Part shown: piece by piece, positions 1 through 8,265 of the stretch
Position numbering within the stretch: the stretch's first letter is position 1
How the letters are laid out: each line of letters begins with the position of its first letter
DNA from: a virus
Taxonomy: Duplodnaviria > Heunggongvirae > Uroviricota > Caudoviricetes
IMG/VR virus record: IMGVR_UViG_2896601577_000006
DNA length: 12,660 nucleotides
Reading direction: 5' to 3' (one strand)
The notes under the pieces: model-generated
The model's database searches: none
Seen by the model: the letters and a program-made list of their open reading frames with translations, nothing else
Told to the model about the DNA's origin: nothing
Position numbers and translations under genes: made by a program

Positions 1-288
1 TCAATGGTTGGCGTCATTATCTTTTTCTCTTTCTGAACGTGAATATTGCGGTGGACGGTTCATCAGCTGTGGGGCAAGACGTTTTGCCACCTGAAGAATA
101 ACCACCACCGCAGCGGGAAGCATGAGCAAAACACCGAGAAAAATCATCAGAATCTGCACTTCTGGCCGAGAAAATGGCTCAGGCAGCGACAGGGAGTCGC
201 TTACCGACAGCAGCGCCACCGCCAGTAGCATCATTCCGATAAATTCCAGTATCAACACGCCTTTAGGCAATTTACCGATCGCGCGCAT
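1..288 (-). CDS. ybjC: small inner-membrane protein YbjC
   Basis: Complete 95-aa ORF (stop at 1-3), two hydrophobic helices, divergent from grxA as in E. coli K-12. Recognised from sequence memory. Confidence 0.85.
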   Translation of the reverse strand: MRAIGKLPKGVLILEFIGMMLLAVALLSVSDSLSLPEPFSRPEVQILMIFLGVLLMLPAAVVVILQVAKRLAPQLMNRPPQYSRSEREKDNDANH

Positions 289-447
289 ACGCTTCCCTCT
301 GCAAAGTGAGCCTTCAGTCTAAAACTTTTCACTGTATTGTGTTTAACAGTTATAGCTTTTAGCAATTAATGCAACAGGTTAAACCTACTTTCAGCGAATA
401 CATTTTAGCGTGATCATTACAGGCATAAATCTATGAGGAGAGAAATA
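289..447. promoter_or_regulatory. divergent ybjC / grxA promoter region (grxA is known to be OxyR-regulated; individual sites not mapped here)
   Basis: AT-rich 159-bp spacer between two divergently oriented genes. Promoter elements not pinpointed from sequence alone. Confidence 0.3.
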
Positions 448-705
448 ATGCAAACCGTTATTTTTGGTCGTTCGGCTTGCCCTTACTGTGTGCGTGCAAA
501 AGATCTGGCTGAGAAATTGAGCAATGAACGCGATGATTTTCAGTATCAGTATGTAGATATTCGTGCGGAAGGGATCACTAAAGAAGATCTACAACAAAAG
601 GCAGGTAAACCCGTAGAAACCGTGCCGCAGATTTTTGTCGATCAGCAACATATCGGCGGCTATACCGATTTTGCTGCATGGGTGAAAGAAAATCTGGACG
701 CCTGA
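448..705 (+). CDS. grxA: glutaredoxin 1
   Basis: 85-aa ORF MQTVIFGRSACPYCVRAKDL... with CPYC active site; GAGGAG Shine-Dalgarno 8 nt upstream of ATG 448. The ORF-track start at 433 is an upstream in-frame ATG without RBS spacing. Confidence 0.95.
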   Translation: MQTVIFGRSACPYCVRAKDLAEKLSNERDDFQYQYVDIRAEGITKEDLQQKAGKPVETVPQIFVDQQHIGGYTDFAAWVKENLDA

Positions 706-714
706 TCGTCTGAC

Positions 715-747
715 AAGCCCTCGCGTTGAGGGCTTTACTGATTTTTT
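715..747 (+). terminator. rho-independent terminator downstream of grxA (overlaps the ybjM stop codon)
   Basis: 8-bp stem AAGCCCTC / GAGGGCTT (715-722 / 728-735) with 5-nt loop, followed by T6 at 742-747. Confidence 0.45.
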
Positions 748-1094
748 CTGTGCTGTGGTTTAAACAAACTACTGATAAATAAGAAACACAGTGCCCCCAG
801 CGCACACCAGAACACCGCGCTTAGTAACCATGCCAGCTCTTGCCAGAATGAGCGCGTCGGTGAAAAAAACAGCCGCATAATGAGCATTGAACAGGGTGCC
901 GCCAGCATTGCGCCAAATAGAGGTTTCAGGACTTCTCTACGCTGTGAAAAGAAACTGGCAACTGCTCCAGGAAGAATGAAAAACAGCAAGCCGATTTCAG
1001 GATGCCCGGCAGCCCGAAAAGCGCCTTTCATGTGCGTCGCCAGAAAAAGGCACACCACAATGAAGAGGACAAAACAGCAGATTGCCCCGCCCAA
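735..1094 (-). CDS. ybjM: inner membrane protein YbjM
   Basis: 119-aa strongly hydrophobic ORF, convergent with grxA and divergent from ybjL as in K-12. Start is uncertain: the longest ORF begins at TTG 1094 with a TAA two codons upstream and no clear RBS; an internal ATG (codon 22) is an alternative. Confidence 0.7.
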   Translation of the reverse strand: MGGAICCFVLFIVVCLFLATHMKGAFRAAGHPEIGLLFFILPGAVASFFSQRREVLKPLFGAMLAAPCSMLIMRLFFSPTRSFWQELAWLLSAVFWCALGALCFLFISSLFKPQHRKNQ

Positions 1095-1380
1095 CGTTGT
1101 TTATGTTTCACTCGTTCCTCCTGACACTGCGTCTATCGAACACATTTTTCGCCAGTGTGGCGTTCAGTAAGATAAAGCCGCTTCGCATTCCATGCTAATA
1201 TAGGCCAACGCAATTCATATAGCCGTTGATACCTAATGTGATTACACTAGTAAAATATATTGTTACTTTACTATCGTTTAGGTGCGCTGAATGAATCTGC
1301 GCCCTGAATTCTGGTAAAAAACATTATCGTAAATTACCATTTCTTTCAACAGCTTACTAGTAAACAAGAAGTTAGCCTCC

Positions 1381-3066
1381 GTGAATATAAACGTCGCCGA
1401 ATTGTTAAATGGGAATTACATTCTGTTATTATTTGTGGTCCTCGCGCTTGGGCTATGTCTCGGAAAGTTACGACTTGGTTCGATCCAACTGGGTAATTCC
1501 ATTGGCGTTTTAGTCGTATCGCTGTTATTAGGCCAACAACATTTCAGCATTAACACCGATGCGCTTAATCTTGGCTTTATGCTGTTTATTTTCTGCGTCG
1601 GGGTCGAAGCCGGACCGAACTTTTTTTCCATTTTTTTTCGCGATGGGAAAAATTACCTAATGTTAGCACTGGTGATGGTTGGCAGTGCGCTGGTGATCGC
1701 CTTAGGGTTAGGTAAGCTGTTTGTCTGGGATATTGGCCTGACGGCCGGTATGTTAGCAGGCTCTATGACGTCGACACCGGTTCTGGTCGGTGCTGGCGAT
1801 ACACTGCGTCATTCCGGCATGGAAAGCAGGCAGCTCTCACTGGCACTGGATAATCTGAGCCTCGGGTATGCCTTAACCTATTTAATCGGTCTGGTGAGTT
1901 TGATTGTTGGTGCGCGTTACTTGCCGAAATTGCAGCATCAGGACTTACAGACCAGCGCCCAGCAAATCGCCCGCGAACGTGGCCTGGACACTGATGCCAA
2001 CCGTAAGGTTTATTTACCGGTGATCCGCGCCTATCGCGTCGGCCCGGAGCTGGTGGCCTGGACCGACGGCAAAAATCTGCGTGAACTGGGTATTTATCGA
2101 CAAACCGGCTGCTACATTGAACGTATTCGACGTAACGGGATTCTGGCAAATCCAGACGGTGATGCCGTGCTACAAATGGGCGATGAAATAGCGTTGGTAG
2201 GCTATCCCGACGCCCATGCCCGACTCGATCCCAGCTTCCGTAACGGTAAAGAAGTTTTCGATCGTGACCTTCTCGACATGCGTATCGTCACTGAAGAAGT
2301 GGTCGTTAAAAACCATAACGCTGTAGGTAAACGTCTCGCACAACTGAAGTTGACCGATCACGGTTGCTTCCTTAACCGCGTCATTCGTAGCCAGATTGAG
2401 ATGCCGATAGATGACAACGTCGTGCTTAACAAAGGTGACGTTTTACAAGTCAGCGGTGATGCCCGTCGCGTAAAAACCATCGCCGATCGCATCGGCTTTA
2501 TCTCGATTCACAGCCAGGTCACTGACCTGCTGGCATTTTGCGCCTTCTTTGTTATTGGGCTGATGATCGGGATGATCACCTTCCAGTTCAGCACATTCAG
2601 TTTCGGCATGGGGAACGCTGCCGGGTTGTTATTCGCCGGAATTATGCTGGGCTTTATGCGTGCTAACCACCCGACCTTCGGTTACATTCCGCAAGGTGCA
2701 TTAAGCATGGTGAAAGAGTTCGGCTTGATGGTGTTTATGGCAGGCGTTGGTCTGAGCGCCGGTAGCGGTATTAATAACGGCCTGGGCGCGATTGGCGGTC
2801 AGATGTTGATTGCCGGATTAATTGTCAGTCTTGTGCCCGTGGTTATCTGTTTCTTGTTCGGTGCTTATGTATTGCGAATGAACCGCGCACTGTTGTTCGG
2901 CGCAATGATGGGCGCACGCACCTGCGCGCCGGCAATGGAGATCATCAGTGATACAGCTCGCAGTAACATCCCTGCGCTGGGCTATGCGGGCACCTACGCA
3001 ATCGCCAACGTCCTGCTGACGCTGGCAGGGACAATCATCGTTATGGTATGGCCAGGATTAGGATAA
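1381..3066 (+). CDS. ybjL: putative AAE-family transporter YbjL with central TrkA-C-like cytoplasmic domains
   Basis: 561-aa ORF with GTG start, hydrophobic N- and C-terminal membrane domains flanking a soluble central region. Sequence recognised as YbjL. Confidence 0.95.
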
Positions 3067-3301: not shown

Positions 3302-3520
3302 TCAAAGAGAGAGCGCCACCTGTCCTGATTTCATTGGATGCGGCTGAACCGGATTTGACTCTTTTGGCGTTGCAATCGAACGAACAAAAGTTTCATGGGT
3401 AACAAAAGTATGGCTGCAGTTAATGTTCTGGCACTGGTTGTAACGCTCTTTGGTCAATGAAGATACCTGAAAACTGCTGCGAGTATGGGCGGCACTTCCA
3501 CACAGTGGGCAAATCATCAT
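3302..3520 (-). CDS. ogr: Ogr/Delta-family zinc-finger late transcription activator
   Basis: 72-aa product MMICPLCGSAAHTRSS...TKERYNQCQNINCSHTF with C-x2-C...C-x4-C zinc finger, aligning with P2 Ogr (MFHCPLC...KERYHQCQNVNC). GGGGAG RBS upstream of ATG 3520. The ORF-track start at 3553 is an upstream extension. Confidence 0.9.
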   Translation of the reverse strand: MMICPLCGSAAHTRSSFQVSSLTKERYNQCQNINCSHTFVTHETFVRSIATPKESNPVQPHPMKSGQVALSL

Positions 3521-3610
3521 TTTTCGAGTTCTCCCCATTTTTGCTAAATTCACAATAATGATACCGCATTATTCCATTTTGCAAGCTTAAAAGTTCTCCA
3601 TTGCGAAGAA

Positions 3611-4711
3611 TCATTCCATTTCGAAATCATCAATCCTCACTTCAAGCTCCAGACTGGTCGTAAAACCGTTATCCGGGCTGACAGTATGCGTCAGAGTCGT
3701 AATGGTCCATTCCGCATCATCTATCGGCTGTTTAAAGCCACTGACCTTCACAGGCATTTCTGTGTAGAGATCTGCCCGCCCTTCCGCCAGTTGTAGCGAG
3801 AATGATGCAACGCCGCGTTGCAGGAGTTCCCACTGCATTTTCGCTGCCCGTTCGGCGTTGCTCCGGTTGGCATAAGTGCGATTAAGTACCAGCACGTTTT
3901 CATCCGTACCCACCAGGTAATCGCCCTGCTTCGCTTCCGGCTCTTTCTTCTGCTTCTTAGTCCTGCGCTTACGCTTCACCGTGGTGCTTTCTTTCTTCGC
4001 GGGTTCGCGGGTATGCAACCAGCTGGCAATGACGCCCGTGTAAGCTCCGCGATCTGCCAGGGTAAAGCGGTGACTGTCGCCGTCCTTGCGTGTGATAGTG
4101 ATCACCGGTAGTGGTTTACCGCTGGCGCTTTTACCCTGCCCCTGCCGGATGAATAACAGATTGCCATTTTTCACCGACGCAATAGCACCGTACTGGCGCG
4201 CCAGCCGCATCAAAAAACTGCCGTCACTCTCATTAGTCTGGTCTATATGCTCCACGAGTTTATCCGACAAGTCTTCACCCAATGCCATCTTCAGTTTGTG
4301 CCGCGCAGCTATTTCCTTCACCACTTCCCCAACGGTGGTCTTGTGCCACGACTTTTCACGGCGGGTATTCAGCGTTTCACGAAAATCAGCACTTCGCGCC
4401 CGGATAGTCAGGCGATCCGGTGCGCCAGTGTGTTCAATCTCGTCCACCGTGAATGCCCCTTTCGGGAAAAGCGGCTGTCCCTTCCAGCCCAGCGCCAGCG
4501 TAATGACAGCCCCACGGCGCGGCAGCACGATTTTTCCATCGGCGTCGTCCAGCTCCAGATCAAGCTGGTCCGCTTCAAAGCCCCGGTTATCCGTCAGCGT
4601 CAGCCCCATCAGGCGGTTGTCCAGCACAGTGGTGATATCCCTGCCTTCAATACTGATGCTGAATGCCGGAGTTTTGTTGCCTTTGTTAAGCAGTTCAGAG
4701 CTGAAATTCAC
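3611..4711 (-). CDS. D: P2 gpD-like tail protein (late control gene D family)
   Basis: 366-aa ORF at the P2 position between U and ogr; start ATG overlaps the U stop (ATGA). Confidence 0.9.
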   Translation of the reverse strand: MNFSSELLNKGNKTPAFSISIEGRDITTVLDNRLMGLTLTDNRGFEADQLDLELDDADGKIVLPRRGAVITLALGWKGQPLFPKGAFTVDEIEHTGAPDRLTIRARSADFRETLNTRREKSWHKTTVGEVVKEIAARHKLKMALGEDLSDKLVEHIDQTNESDGSFLMRLARQYGAIASVKNGNLLFIRQGQGKSASGKPLPVITITRKDGDSHRFTLADRGAYTGVIASWLHTREPAKKESTTVKRKRRTKKQKKEPEAKQGDYLVGTDENVLVLNRTYANRSNAERAAKMQWELLQRGVASFSLQLAEGRADLYTEMPVKVSGFKQPIDDAEWTITTLTHTVSPDNGFTTSLELEVRIDDFEME

Positions 4712-5193
4712 GACAGCAGCCCTCCCACCGTTTTACTGATATCGCTTAAGGCAGATGTTGCCGTTCCCTGCAGATTATTCAGTTGCGCACTGAGATCACC
4801 GAACATATCGGACAGGGATTCATCCACGCGTTTTAGCGACAGGGTGAACTCAATCCGGCGCGGCATACCGTCGCGGAAAAACTCCGTTTTAGTCTGATTC
4901 AGTCCCTCAATCACATACATGCCGTAAATCGTGCCGCTGCCTTCAATCAGGGGCCATGCTTTTCCCTGTTCTGCCATCTGCTCCAGAGCCAGCAACGACA
5001 GCCTGCCGCCCGTTACCTCCGGCATAAGAACACCAGAAAGCGTCAGCATGTCGTTGTCCGGTCCCAGAAACTGCGTTGACGGGCGTCGGTTTACCCGGCT
5101 GTTTGCCGCATGTCGCCAGCTGCGTTGATACTGCAGCTCCTGATACGGCACGGTGCGCAGCATAAACACGTACAATCCCAGCACCATCATCAT
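4708..5193 (-). CDS. U: P2 gpU-like tail protein
   Basis: 161-aa ORF beginning MMMVLGLYVFMLRTVPYQ, in the P2 gene order T-U-D; ATGA overlap with D. Confidence 0.9.
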   Translation of the reverse strand: MMMVLGLYVFMLRTVPYQELQYQRSWRHAANSRVNRRPSTQFLGPDNDMLTLSGVLMPEVTGGRLSLLALEQMAEQGKAWPLIEGSGTIYGMYVIEGLNQTKTEFFRDGMPRRIEFTLSLKRVDESLSDMFGDLSAQLNNLQGTATSALSDISKTVGGLLS

Positions 5194-7663
5194 GCGTCGT
5201 ATCCCCCTGATCGCTGTAGTTACTCCTGGCTTTTGCCTTCAGCCTGCGTTCACGTTCATCAAGCTGGCGGGCCACCTCCCGCGCAATATCCTGCGCACTT
5301 TGTCCTGGCTGCGTTTGAATGATGATCTGCATCGGTGCCTCAATCCGTTGAACGGGCGGCACAGTGGCTGCACGACTCACCATCGCTTCACCGCCTTTCG
5401 CGGGAAGTGCCAAAGGGTGCAACGGTGGAAGCTCTGCTGGCGTAGCAGCAACACCCATCATTCCGGCAACAACGGCAGCCAGTGCAGCTGTATTTCTCCG
5501 GCTGGTCACATTTGCCGGGCCGTTAACAATTTCCGGCCCGTTTTCACCGACGATGCCAAACTGCCCGCGCGGGATATACCCGCCGCTGTCATACATCCCC
5601 GCAAAGCCATATCCCCATGACGGAAAACCACCCGATGGCATCATCACTTTACCGTCTGCATTCACCGTCGCAGGTTGCTGACGCGTCACGCTTTCCGGCA
5701 GTTTCGCCTTTGCGGCCTCTTTACTGACAATGCCAAGTTTCTCCAGCAACCAGGAAACGCCGGATTTCAGGGAGTCCAGCGGATGCATGACCATATTCAG
5801 CCCTTCCGCCAGAGCCTCCCCGAATCGTCGCCCCATTGCCGCTGCACTCTGCAGTTCGGCAGAGGTCGACTTAACGGGCGTCAGCAGATCAGTAAACCAG
5901 CCCCACAGCGCCTGTACTTTGTCGCCAATCCACTGGAACACAGGCTTAAGCGGTTCGAACGCGGCACTGACAGGACCTGCCGCCGCTTTGAATCCTTCCA
6001 CCACGCCACCGAGAAATGCGGTGATGGGCTGCCAGTATTTCCAGACAACCAGCGCCACACCCGCCAGTGCAGTAACCACAAGACCTATCAGACTGAGCAG
6101 AGCACCTAACAGACCAGAGACGGCATACAGGGCAACGCGCAGCATCGCCAGTGGACCGGATGCGAGCATACGCAGCACCGTGCCTGTGGCAGCCAGTCCG
6201 CCGCGTAGTACCGCCAGTGGATTCATAAACATCACAGCAACCGCACGTAAACCGGATAATCCAGACCGCAAAAGTGCAACCGGCGCACCTGCTACAGTTT
6301 TCAGGACATTTCCCGTCAGTGATGCCGTGCGGCGCAAAGACGACAACGGCGCAGTAAGTAAACCTGCAGCGTTGCCCGATGAAGCAAGCCCGCGTCGCAG
6401 CAGTGCCAGTGGTGCGCCAGCCAGCCAGGACAACGCGTTGCTGGTTCGGGTTACTGCTGCCGTAACGGAAGGTAACGTTTTGATACCCAGCACAGAGAAT
6501 CCCAGACGGATGACTGCCAGCGGCCCCAGCACTGCAGCCAGCGCCACCGCTAAGGTGCCGAGGCCCACGGTAACGGCAGCTACCACAGCGGCTACTTTCA
6601 TCAGAGTGCCCGTCAGTTCCGGGTTAGCTTCCACCCAGCGACGCAACGCCCCCGTGACGCTTTTCACCGTGTACAGAATATCCATCAGCGGCTGGCGCAG
6701 CGTTTCCCCCAGGCTGCTGAAGGTGTTCTGTGCTCCGGTTTTGACCAGCAACCACTGAGCAGAAAGTGAATCCTTGTTGATGTCGGATTCTTTCTGCATG
6801 GAACCGAGCGCATCATTGCCCGCAGTCAGTTTTAACTGGCGCTGAAGTTCCGGCAGGTTGTTTGCCAGTTTCGCTGCGTCATCGCCAAACTCTTTACCAA
6901 ACAACATGGTCATGGCAGACAGGCGCTTATCCTGTGGCAGCGCATTCACCTTCTCCAGCACCCGCTGGATAGTTCCCATCGCATCCTTCGTCATCTGCTT
7001 TTCAATCACTTCTGGATTGAGTTTCAGCAGATTCATCCCTTCAAAGAAACTCTTGCTTTGCATGGTGGCAATGGACAATTCACGCACCATCGCGTTTGCT
7101 GCACTGGCTGCAACCTCAGGCGCAGCGCCGAGTGTCAGGAAGGTGGAACCCAGCGCCGCCGCTTTACGATAATCCAGACGGTCAGCCACACCGCCCAGGC
7201 GTTGCATGACATCAATGATGTCCGCCCCTTTCGACATGGCGTTATCATCCAGATAGTTCAGCGCATCACCGAGCTGCTCAATATTGCGGGTAGGGATTTT
7301 GTAGAGCTGGGCGATTTTCCCCAGACTTTCTGACAGTTCATCCGCTGGCAGTTCAAAGGCTGTTGCCGCCTTTGCCGCCGTGCTGGCGAAGGCCAGCAGG
7401 TCACGTTTCTGGTCTTCCCAGCTGTCGTCAGGGTTTGCGACGTTCATGCGCGCACCACCTTCAACCAGTGCGGCGAAGTCCACAGCACCGTTTTCCATCG
7501 GCAACTGTTCGCTGGCAGCCTTGATGGCACCCTGCATTTCGTAAAAACGCGCAGTGCGGTTGCCATTATCGTCACGCAGACCATTGACCTGCTTTGCCAC
7601 ACCTTTCATGGCATCTTCCATGCTGGTATAGCTTTTTACTGCCGCCATCACTGGTGCGCCCAT
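4943..7663 (-). CDS. T: tail tape-measure protein gpT, main/C-terminal reading frame (frameshifted gene; see findings)
   Basis: 906-aa ORF with hydrophobic Ala/Leu/Gly-rich internal repeats typical of tape-measure proteins. The frame is open upstream of the listed ATG to 7798, and at the 3' end it overlaps U by 251 nt. Confidence 0.8.
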   Translation of the reverse strand: MGAPVMAAVKSYTSMEDAMKGVAKQVNGLRDDNGNRTARFYEMQGAIKAASEQLPMENGAVDFAALVEGGARMNVANPDDSWEDQKRDLLAFASTAAKAATAFELPADELSESLGKIAQLYKIPTRNIEQLGDALNYLDDNAMSKGADIIDVMQRLGGVADRLDYRKAAALGSTFLTLGAAPEVAASAANAMVRELSIATMQSKSFFEGMNLLKLNPEVIEKQMTKDAMGTIQRVLEKVNALPQDKRLSAMTMLFGKEFGDDAAKLANNLPELQRQLKLTAGNDALGSMQKESDINKDSLSAQWLLVKTGAQNTFSSLGETLRQPLMDILYTVKSVTGALRRWVEANPELTGTLMKVAAVVAAVTVGLGTLAVALAAVLGPLAVIRLGFSVLGIKTLPSVTAAVTRTSNALSWLAGAPLALLRRGLASSGNAAGLLTAPLSSLRRTASLTGNVLKTVAGAPVALLRSGLSGLRAVAVMFMNPLAVLRGGLAATGTVLRMLASGPLAMLRVALYAVSGLLGALLSLIGLVVTALAGVALVVWKYWQPITAFLGGVVEGFKAAAGPVSAAFEPLKPVFQWIGDKVQALWGWFTDLLTPVKSTSAELQSAAAMGRRFGEALAEGLNMVMHPLDSLKSGVSWLLEKLGIVSKEAAKAKLPESVTRQQPATVNADGKVMMPSGGFPSWGYGFAGMYDSGGYIPRGQFGIVGENGPEIVNGPANVTSRRNTAALAAVVAGMMGVAATPAELPPLHPLALPAKGGEAMVSRAATVPPVQRIEAPMQIIIQTQPGQSAQDIAREVARQLDERERRLKAKARSNYSDQGDTTHDDGAGIVRVYAAHRAVSGAAVSTQLATCGKQPGKPTPVNAVSGTGQRHADAFWCSYAGGNGRQAVVAGSGADGRTGKSMAPD

Positions 7664-7713
7664 TGCCAGCCCTGCAGCCGTGGTGGTGGCTCCGGCACCT
7701 GCAATACGATCCC

Positions 7714-8265
7714 TTACCTCAAGACGCCTGGCGTAAGCCCCCGGGCGGCGTGCATTTTTCGCTGTTGCTCCCCGACACGTCGTAACCTCGCTTCCTGCTC
7801 AGAAAGCTGCCTGTTATAACGCATCGTTTCACGGGTAATGCGGGCCGTCGCACTGGCGCCATCATTAGCTGAAATACCAGCACGATAAAGTTCTGCACGC
7901 ACAAGCGCCGTCTGCTGCTGCAGCTTTTTCTGGCGTTCTTCCAGGCGCTGAACAGCCAGCCGTTGACGGCCCAGAGCAACAACCTGACGTTGCGAAGGCG
8001 GCCCCATCGCTCCCAGTTCCTGACTGAGCAAATTTGCACGCTGGCGGGCATAGTTCAGCCTGTCGCCTAATTTCTGATTTTCTGCCTGCAGCTTTCGGAA
8101 GCTGTCCAGACTGCTCCCGGCCTGATCAAGCTGCTTTATTGCATCGCGGGATTTTTTGACAGCAGCAGCCAGTTCTCTTGAACTGGCCTGCGCGGATCGA
8201 AATGGGCGGGTGAGTTTGTCAACCGCATTAAGAATCACCTGCAGACGCAGGTTATTGTCACTCAT
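7714..8265 (-). CDS. T: tail tape-measure protein gpT, N-terminal fragment
   Basis: 183-aa coiled-coil-like ORF (Q/R/E/A/L-rich) whose ATG overlaps the E' stop (ATGAGTGA) exactly as the T start does in P2-like phages. It ends at TAA 7714-7716 while the next frame stays open. Confidence 0.75.
   Translation of the reverse strand: MSDNNLRLQVILNAVDKLTRPFRSAQASSRELAAAVKKSRDAIKQLDQAGSSLDSFRKLQAENQKLGDRLNYARQRANLLSQELGAMGPPSQRQVVALGRQRLAVQRLEERQKKLQQQTALVRAELYRAGISANDGASATARITRETMRYNRQLSEQEARLRRVGEQQRKMHAARGLTPGVLR

Follow-up and report, generated by a model that had tools for sequence, protein, structure and literature searches.

How the tape-measure gene of one P2-like prophage came to be read in two pieces is the question raised by this locus. 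The break falls at a short run of G residues, and it could be a genuine frameshift mutation, a sequencing error, a place at which the frame is shifted during expression, or the border between two separate genes. The locus was compared with intact relatives and with other assemblies that carry the same allele, and each of these possibilities is weighed below at the point where the evidence bears on it.

Two open frames in the tape-measure gene

The stretch of DNA analyzed here (the window, 12,660 nucleotides) is a Shigella-type chromosome segment in which the chromosomal genes ybjC, grxA, ybjM, and ybjL (1-3066) precede the right end of a P2-like (Peduoviridae) prophage. That right end spans 3302 to 10446 on the minus strand, and its genes stand in the order FI-FII-E/E'-T-U-D-ogr. 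First in transcriptional order are the intact tail sheath gene FI (9274-10446) and the intact tail tube gene FII (8749-9264), both recognized from their open reading frames (ORFs) and from the annotation of relatives. Gene E, a tail assembly chaperone gene (8392..8694, PF10109) that holds a programmed -1 slippery site, comes next, together with the 39-codon E' ORF that is reached through a -1 shift and overlaps the start of T (8258..8377, "GpE family" in relatives, PF06528). The tape-measure (gpT-type) pseudogene T occupies 5190..8265 as a whole. Beyond it lie gene U for a 161-aa tail protein (4708..5193, PF06995, 150 bits), gene D for a 366-aa protein of the late control D family (3611..4711, an ORF with PF05954 and matching annotation in relatives), and, at the prophage end adjoining ybjL, a gene for an ogr/Delta-like zinc-finger late activator (3302..3520, PF04606, also annotated in relatives). 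An IS1 copy with InsA and InsB ORFs (10494..11261, minus strand) sits directly upstream of the sheath gene, and an inactivated prophage integrase gene follows on the plus strand (11608..12660). This layout rests on the annotation of E. coli prophages that are nearly identical and on that of Escherichia phage 500465-1 (Peduoviridae), and the Pfam matches to E and U agree with it. T thus lies between the E/E' chaperone genes and U-D of the FETUD tail operon, which is the position of a P2-type gpT.

T is split into two open frames on the minus strand. The first is a 183-aa ORF (7714..8265) of 176 native residues followed by seven out-of-frame residues (LTPGVLR), and it ends at a premature TAA (7716-7714). 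The second (4943..7798) includes a 906-aa ORF (4943..7663) that begins at an ATG at 7663. The stop upstream of this second frame is a TGA at 7801-7799, which leaves it open from 7798 and gives the two frames an overlap of 82 nt (7717-7798). Between those limits lies the frameshift site CCCGGGGG (7745-7738), composed of CCC at 7745-7743 and a tract of five G residues, or G5, at 7742-7738. The minus strand around the site reads ...ATGCACGCCGCCCGGGGGCTTACGCCAGGCGTCTTGAGGTAAGGG..., with the TAA at 7716-7714, and a longer reading of the break region is ...AAAATGCACGCCGCCCGGGGGCTTACGCCAGGCGTCTTGAGGTAAGGG.... Translation in the start frame departs from the native frame after Gly176. The sequence-only reading had placed the end of the N-terminal frame at this TAA, the opening of the other frame at 7798 with an 82-nt overlap, and a C5G3 run at 7738-7745; every one of these coordinates, like the others that it gave, proved exact.

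The two products differ in what they contain. The 183-aa product matches exactly a database entry, WP_134800733.1, listed as "hypothetical protein [Shigella dysenteriae]" and under "Shigella" in UniRef, and a profile search found no Pfam domain in it. The tape-measure core (TIGR01760, residues 200-567) lies wholly downstream of the break, and PF10145 is recorded for the 906-aa ORF product. The second frame comprises native T residues 177 to about 1020 and then 83 codons inside gene U, into which it runs because of a second frameshift at 5203-5207. Split at both nt 524 and nt 3060 of the gene, T in the window does not form a single continuous ORF of the length typical of its family (1025 aa).

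Intact relatives and repair of the gene

In intact relatives, which include E. coli prophages and Peduoviridae phages, T is one gene of 3078 nt that encodes a 1025-aa "phage tail tape measure protein," and it has one base more at the break site. In the window the whole gene measures 3076 nt. The two closest relatives (L001 and L004) read CCCGGGGGG at the site, and the closest intact genes have GGGGGG at T nt 524-529 within CGG GGG GCT, or Arg-Gly-Ala. Judged against these relatives, the window carries a deletion that reduces six G residues (G6) to five at T nt 524. The deletion is absent from the E. coli genomes and phages compared: all 34 of the E. coli complete genomes that match 7690-7800 have 112 nt where the query has 111, and all full-length phage matches have 902 nt against 901. 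A search with the flanking pattern gave four metagenome matches, each at the longer length. The exact pattern of the G5 allele was absent from the GTDB species representatives and JGI metagenomes, collections with little or no Shigella that are therefore uninformative about that genus; when one additional base was allowed, the same collections gave no match among genome representatives and, in metagenomes, just the four of undeleted length. Alignment with intact P2-family tape-measure proteins had been proposed as a check on the break, and a single 1025-aa T with one more base at this place bears out the reading of it as an indel.

The rest of the alignment is nearly free of differences. The window is 99.82% identical to E. 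coli UPEC-245U over 10,496 aligned columns and 99.66% identical to E. coli strain B2C over 9,095 columns. All indels relative to UPEC-245U are three 1-nt deletions in G/C runs, which in plus-strand form are C5 to C4 in ybjM (about 1085-1088), C6 to C5 at 5203-5207 (T nt 3060), and C6 to C5 at 7738-7742 (T nt 524), and indels relative to B2C are likewise confined to 1-nt deletions in G/C runs. Within T, the difference from UPEC-245U amounts to three substitutions and the two 1-nt deletions. The break site is one of only three such deletions, and we conclude that the pattern of ORFs did not arise by chance.

The second deletion in T governs what repair of the first can achieve. Insertion of one G at the first run restores ...KMHAARGAYARRLEVRDRIAG..., identical to the intact homologs P0011 and P0003, and the continuity across the break that the sequence-only reading had predicted therefore holds. 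The predicted length of about 1025 aa does not follow from that insertion, however, as repair of the first run alone gives a 1107-aa product that reads through into gene U. The cause is a second loss of one G from a run of six at T nt 3060 (5203..5207, minus strand), five codons before the native T stop, a TGA at 5192-5190 that overlaps the ATG of U at 5193-5191. The nt 3060 deletion adds 83 codons within U, and only when both runs are repaired is a protein of 1025 aa obtained, ending in ...QGGYDA*. The repaired protein matches TIGR01760 at 312.4 bits (cutoff, 28.8) over residues 200-567 and PF10145 at 66.8 bits (cutoff, 33.2). In operon position, in its 1025-aa length, and in its TIGR01760/PF10145 core, the repaired protein resembles gpT of P2-like phages (Escherichia phage 500465-1 gp40 and E. 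coli WP_112048226.1 and WP_001282801.1); unlike theirs, the window copy is interrupted as an ORF by its two 1-nt deletions.

Deletion or sequencing error

Whether the base was lost from the DNA or from the consensus is the first matter to be decided. The sequence-only reading had left a pseudogenizing indel and a homopolymer sequencing error side by side, and the assemblies compared here favor the mutation. The 183-aa product WP_134800733.1 was found on 15 contigs, and the G5 allele at nt 524 was verified base by base in 17 other loci (L006-L015, L020-L023, and L026-L028). These are 11 PacBio chromosomes of Shigella and six Logan assemblies of separate read sets (ERR14938997, SRR15989154, SRR22550175, and SRR19634182/91/93). 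The 11 complete chromosomes share an origin in a single PacBio-only project (accession series CP0267xx-CP0268xx), and one of them, CP026731.1, belongs to S. boydii ATCC 8700 (PMC9430107). PMC10132075 cites the series as a PacBio set of 59 historical Shigella strains. The carriers of the allele have two prophage architectures, one with the order int-IS1-sheath, as in the window, and the other with the order lysis-R-S-IS1-fiber-invertase-sheath.

Beyond the common deletion, individual carriers have further lesions in T. A CTGG repeat unit is deleted at T nt 1839 in L008 (L008 7837), an additional G at T nt 1999 (GG to GGG, position 7999) is common to L010, L012, L013, and L014, and a reduction from four G residues to three at T nt 2446 is common to the PacBio chromosome L014 (8445) and the independent Logan assembly L028 (2523). 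The tract at nt 524 does not vary in length and is G5 in every lineage member examined. The tract at nt 3060 is G5 in the window, CP026866.1, L014, L020, L022, L023, and L028 and G6 in the other related loci. The length of the nt 3060 tract thus follows a patchy, homoplasic pattern among related assemblies, and between L021 (G6) and L022 and L023 (G5) it is the sole difference over 5 kb, which may be real variation or assembly noise.

In the case of a homopolymer error of sequencing or assembly, the strain would truly have the six-base tract and the PacBio consensus would have lost one base. PacBio sequencing is prone to deletions in G/C homopolymers, and the indels of the window fit consensus errors of that kind, as each of the three removes a base from a G/C run (both G6 runs and one of the five G5/C5 runs) and no A/T run is altered. 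Moreover, the window alone has the ybjM deletion, the related chromosome L014 has eight such deletions, and the related chromosomes belong to the PacBio-only project. The allele, however, is confined neither to one assembly nor to one collection of reads: it is present in 11 of 11 related PacBio chromosomes, and it is present in the six Logan assemblies, four of which show only the two G-run deletions over 4.8 to 7.5 kb. L015 and L028, also Logan assemblies, have additional homopolymer indels of their own. A systematic miscall of G6 is disfavored because the other G6 run, at nt 3060, retains all six residues in 9 of the same 11 chromosomes, and an error of this particular assembly is disfavored because the G5 allele recurs across architectures, secondary lesions, and other read sets. 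Furthermore, the deletion occurs in 0 of the 34 matching E. coli complete genomes, and downstream lineage-specific lesions such as the CTGG deletion and the additional G in four strains are what would be expected after an old and real inactivation. We consider an error at this site very improbable. To judge from the assemblies compared, we conclude that the nt 524 deletion is very probably a genuine mutation that was inherited and that predates the IS1 rearrangements.

The deletion in ybjM deserves separate mention. Near the 5' end of ybjM (1085-1088, minus strand), the reduction of C5 to C4 shifts the reading frame; ybjM of CP026866.1 is intact and encodes 125 aa, and that chromosome differs from the window by three single-nucleotide polymorphisms (SNPs) and the ybjM indel. 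Of the three indels, the one in ybjM is the most error-like and the best candidate for a long-read homopolymer error, and otherwise it may be a very recent mutation. Not every homopolymer deletion that looks private to one PacBio chromosome need be an error, as the independent read set behind L028 reproduces the deletion of L014 at T nt 2446.

Recurrence and alternative readings

The same base appears to have been lost more than once. The four contigs L020-L023 (SRR22550175 and SRR19634182/91/93) have a T that is about 3.4% diverged from that of the window and 98.9% identical to its nearest relative, an intact T in E. coli 65COLEC with CGAGGGG at the spot. They carry SNPs of the 65COLEC haplotype 20 to 35 nt from the run together with the same 1-nt deletion at nt 524, and the deletion on this haplotype is therefore taken to be an independent event. 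The nt 3060 deletion is also found in three of the four contigs of this haplotype, and 2 of about 1061 E. coli complete genomes likewise have G5 at that position. The region compared (10.5 kb) contains exactly two G6/C6 runs, which are these two tracts of T. In E. coli, the rate of indels climbs exponentially with run length (PMC8510543), and given that dependence the two G runs, as the longest G/C runs in the region, are the likeliest hot spots for indels. The simplest reading is that an unselected gene has slipped repeatedly at its two most mutable sites.

Alternatively, the repeated and independent collapse of G6 to G5 could have been selected for as a means of switching off, or reversibly switching, the production of tails or tailocin-like particles by P2-type prophages in Shigella, with residual full-length T supplied by a low-level -1 slip on G_GGG. 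The idea draws on the occurrence of the collapse in the lineage of the window, L020, L021-L023, L014, L028, and the two E. coli genomes, and on the G6/G5 difference between otherwise identical contigs. Phase-variable contingency tracts are typically 7 nt or more in length and lie in a gene whose switching is selectable; here the tracts are 5 to 6 nt, and they lie in a remnant that lacks head, baseplate, and fiber genes. We give selection for loss a faint chance.

Functional recoding would restore full-length T through a programmed or tolerated -1 ribosomal shift, with tRNA-Gly slipping on G_GGG, or through transcriptional slippage at G5. A -1 slip in the P site on CGG GGG would re-pair perfectly and yield the exact native ...AARGAYARR..., and the 82-nt overlap of the open frames permits a shift in that direction. 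A canonical X_XXY_YYZ heptamer is absent in the zero-frame phase, however; the codons are GCC CGG GGG CTT, and only the single-tRNA slip on G_GGG is possible. A stimulatory RNA structure downstream is common at -1 sites and not obligatory, and the folding energy of the 88 nt that follow (-30.2 kcal/mol; mean of shuffles, -31.7; z = +0.44) is no lower than shuffling of the sequence gives. Moreover, undeleted relatives all have a single ORF with one base more, which makes the split a recently derived state rather than a conserved signal, and selection for T appears to be lacking, given the second frameshift, the lesions in sister strains, and the loss of head, baseplate, and fiber genes. The operon also has a real programmed site, the slippery heptamer T_TTT_TTG of gene E (8437-8431, minus strand), which is in phase, intact, and about 700 nt upstream, and a -1 shift there would give a predicted 145-aa E+E' product ending at 8258, 7 nt into T. 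Such a shift at TTTTTTG is known for E/E+E' of P2 (PMC3091744). The programmed -1 frameshifts of P2 E/E+E' and lambda G/GT resemble the break in T in that they occur in the same tail operon, adjoin the tape-measure gene, and go in the direction that would also restore T of the window. They differ in that the chaperone signal lies upstream of T, has an in-phase heptamer, and is conserved in functional phages; the T site has none of these and is a one-base deletion. Programmed frameshifting at the T site is not supported, and we allow barely any chance that recoding of either kind operates there; the single-tRNA slip may leak at a trace level, though no evidence speaks for it.

Finally, two genuine separate genes for proteins of 183 and 906 aa are next to impossible: gene callers and RefSeq do list WP_134800733.1 and the 906-aa ORF separately, but no undeleted homolog, the place where such a pair might have refuted a frameshift, has two genes here, each having one 1025-aa protein that spans both parts, and no domain is present in the 183-aa product, and a single base is all that sets the junction apart from intact genes.

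Decay of the prophage and meaning of the deletion

How T decayed is best placed within the decay of the whole prophage, which is dead in other respects too. Relative to UPEC-245U, the IS1 element occupies the place of about 25.5 kb that includes fiber, baseplate, lysis, head, replication, and immunity genes, and its junctions map to UPEC-245U 4214559 and 4240027. A TGG-to-TAG change at 12229-12231 splits the integrase gene into two ORFs, and the same split calls (207 aa and 103 aa) are found in L006, L008, and L009 (CP026866.1, CP026814.1, and CP026797.1). As a separate observation, substitutions between the window and UPEC-245U (L004 and L005) are strongly skewed: at 14 sites the window has A/T against G/C in the relative, and at only 3 does the opposite hold. 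The skew fits mutation pressure from G:C to A:T under relaxed selection, with the direction read against the E. coli relative alone.

We think it very probable that an inherited loss of one base at T nt 524 has made the tape-measure gene of a decayed P2-like prophage a pseudogene. Strand slippage during replication would be the likely cause of the loss from the stretch at nt 524-529. Translation shifted after Gly176 would add LTPGVLR and stop at the TAA at 7716-7714, and the predicted 183-aa product would lack the tape-measure core and everything downstream. No tail-length ruler can be expected from such a product, and for that reason we infer that T has lost its function. The deletion would be older than the differing IS1 rearrangements of the related Shigella assemblies, and it seems to have arisen independently on the second, diverged T haplotype as well. 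T then probably kept decaying without selection, through the second loss from G6 to G5 at nt 3060 and, in sister strains, through other slippage lesions, and the prophage itself also has the IS1 replacement and the nonsense codon in its integrase gene.

IS elements and pseudogenes are abundant in Shigella genomes. The T gene of the window resembles the homopolymer-slippage pseudogenes of Shigella and of cryptic prophages in the single-base loss from a G/C run, in the accompanying IS1-mediated deletion, integrase nonsense codon, and lineage-specific lesions, and in its inheritance across strains. It differs from them in nothing of kind; the nuance is that both G6 runs of T have repeatedly been lost in independent lineages. 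We regard T as an ordinary pseudogene of the homopolymer-slippage type within a defective P2-like prophage, and its break represents no new biology. For annotation, one frameshifted tape-measure pseudogene should be recorded here in place of a "hypothetical protein" and a truncated tape-measure protein, and the locus should not be "corrected" as a sequencing error. More generally, a real homopolymer frameshift can be told from a long-read artifact when independent assemblies are searched for the exact truncated product. Ultimately, the common G5 allele, as it predates the IS1 rearrangements that separate related Shigella strains, may be used as a lineage marker.
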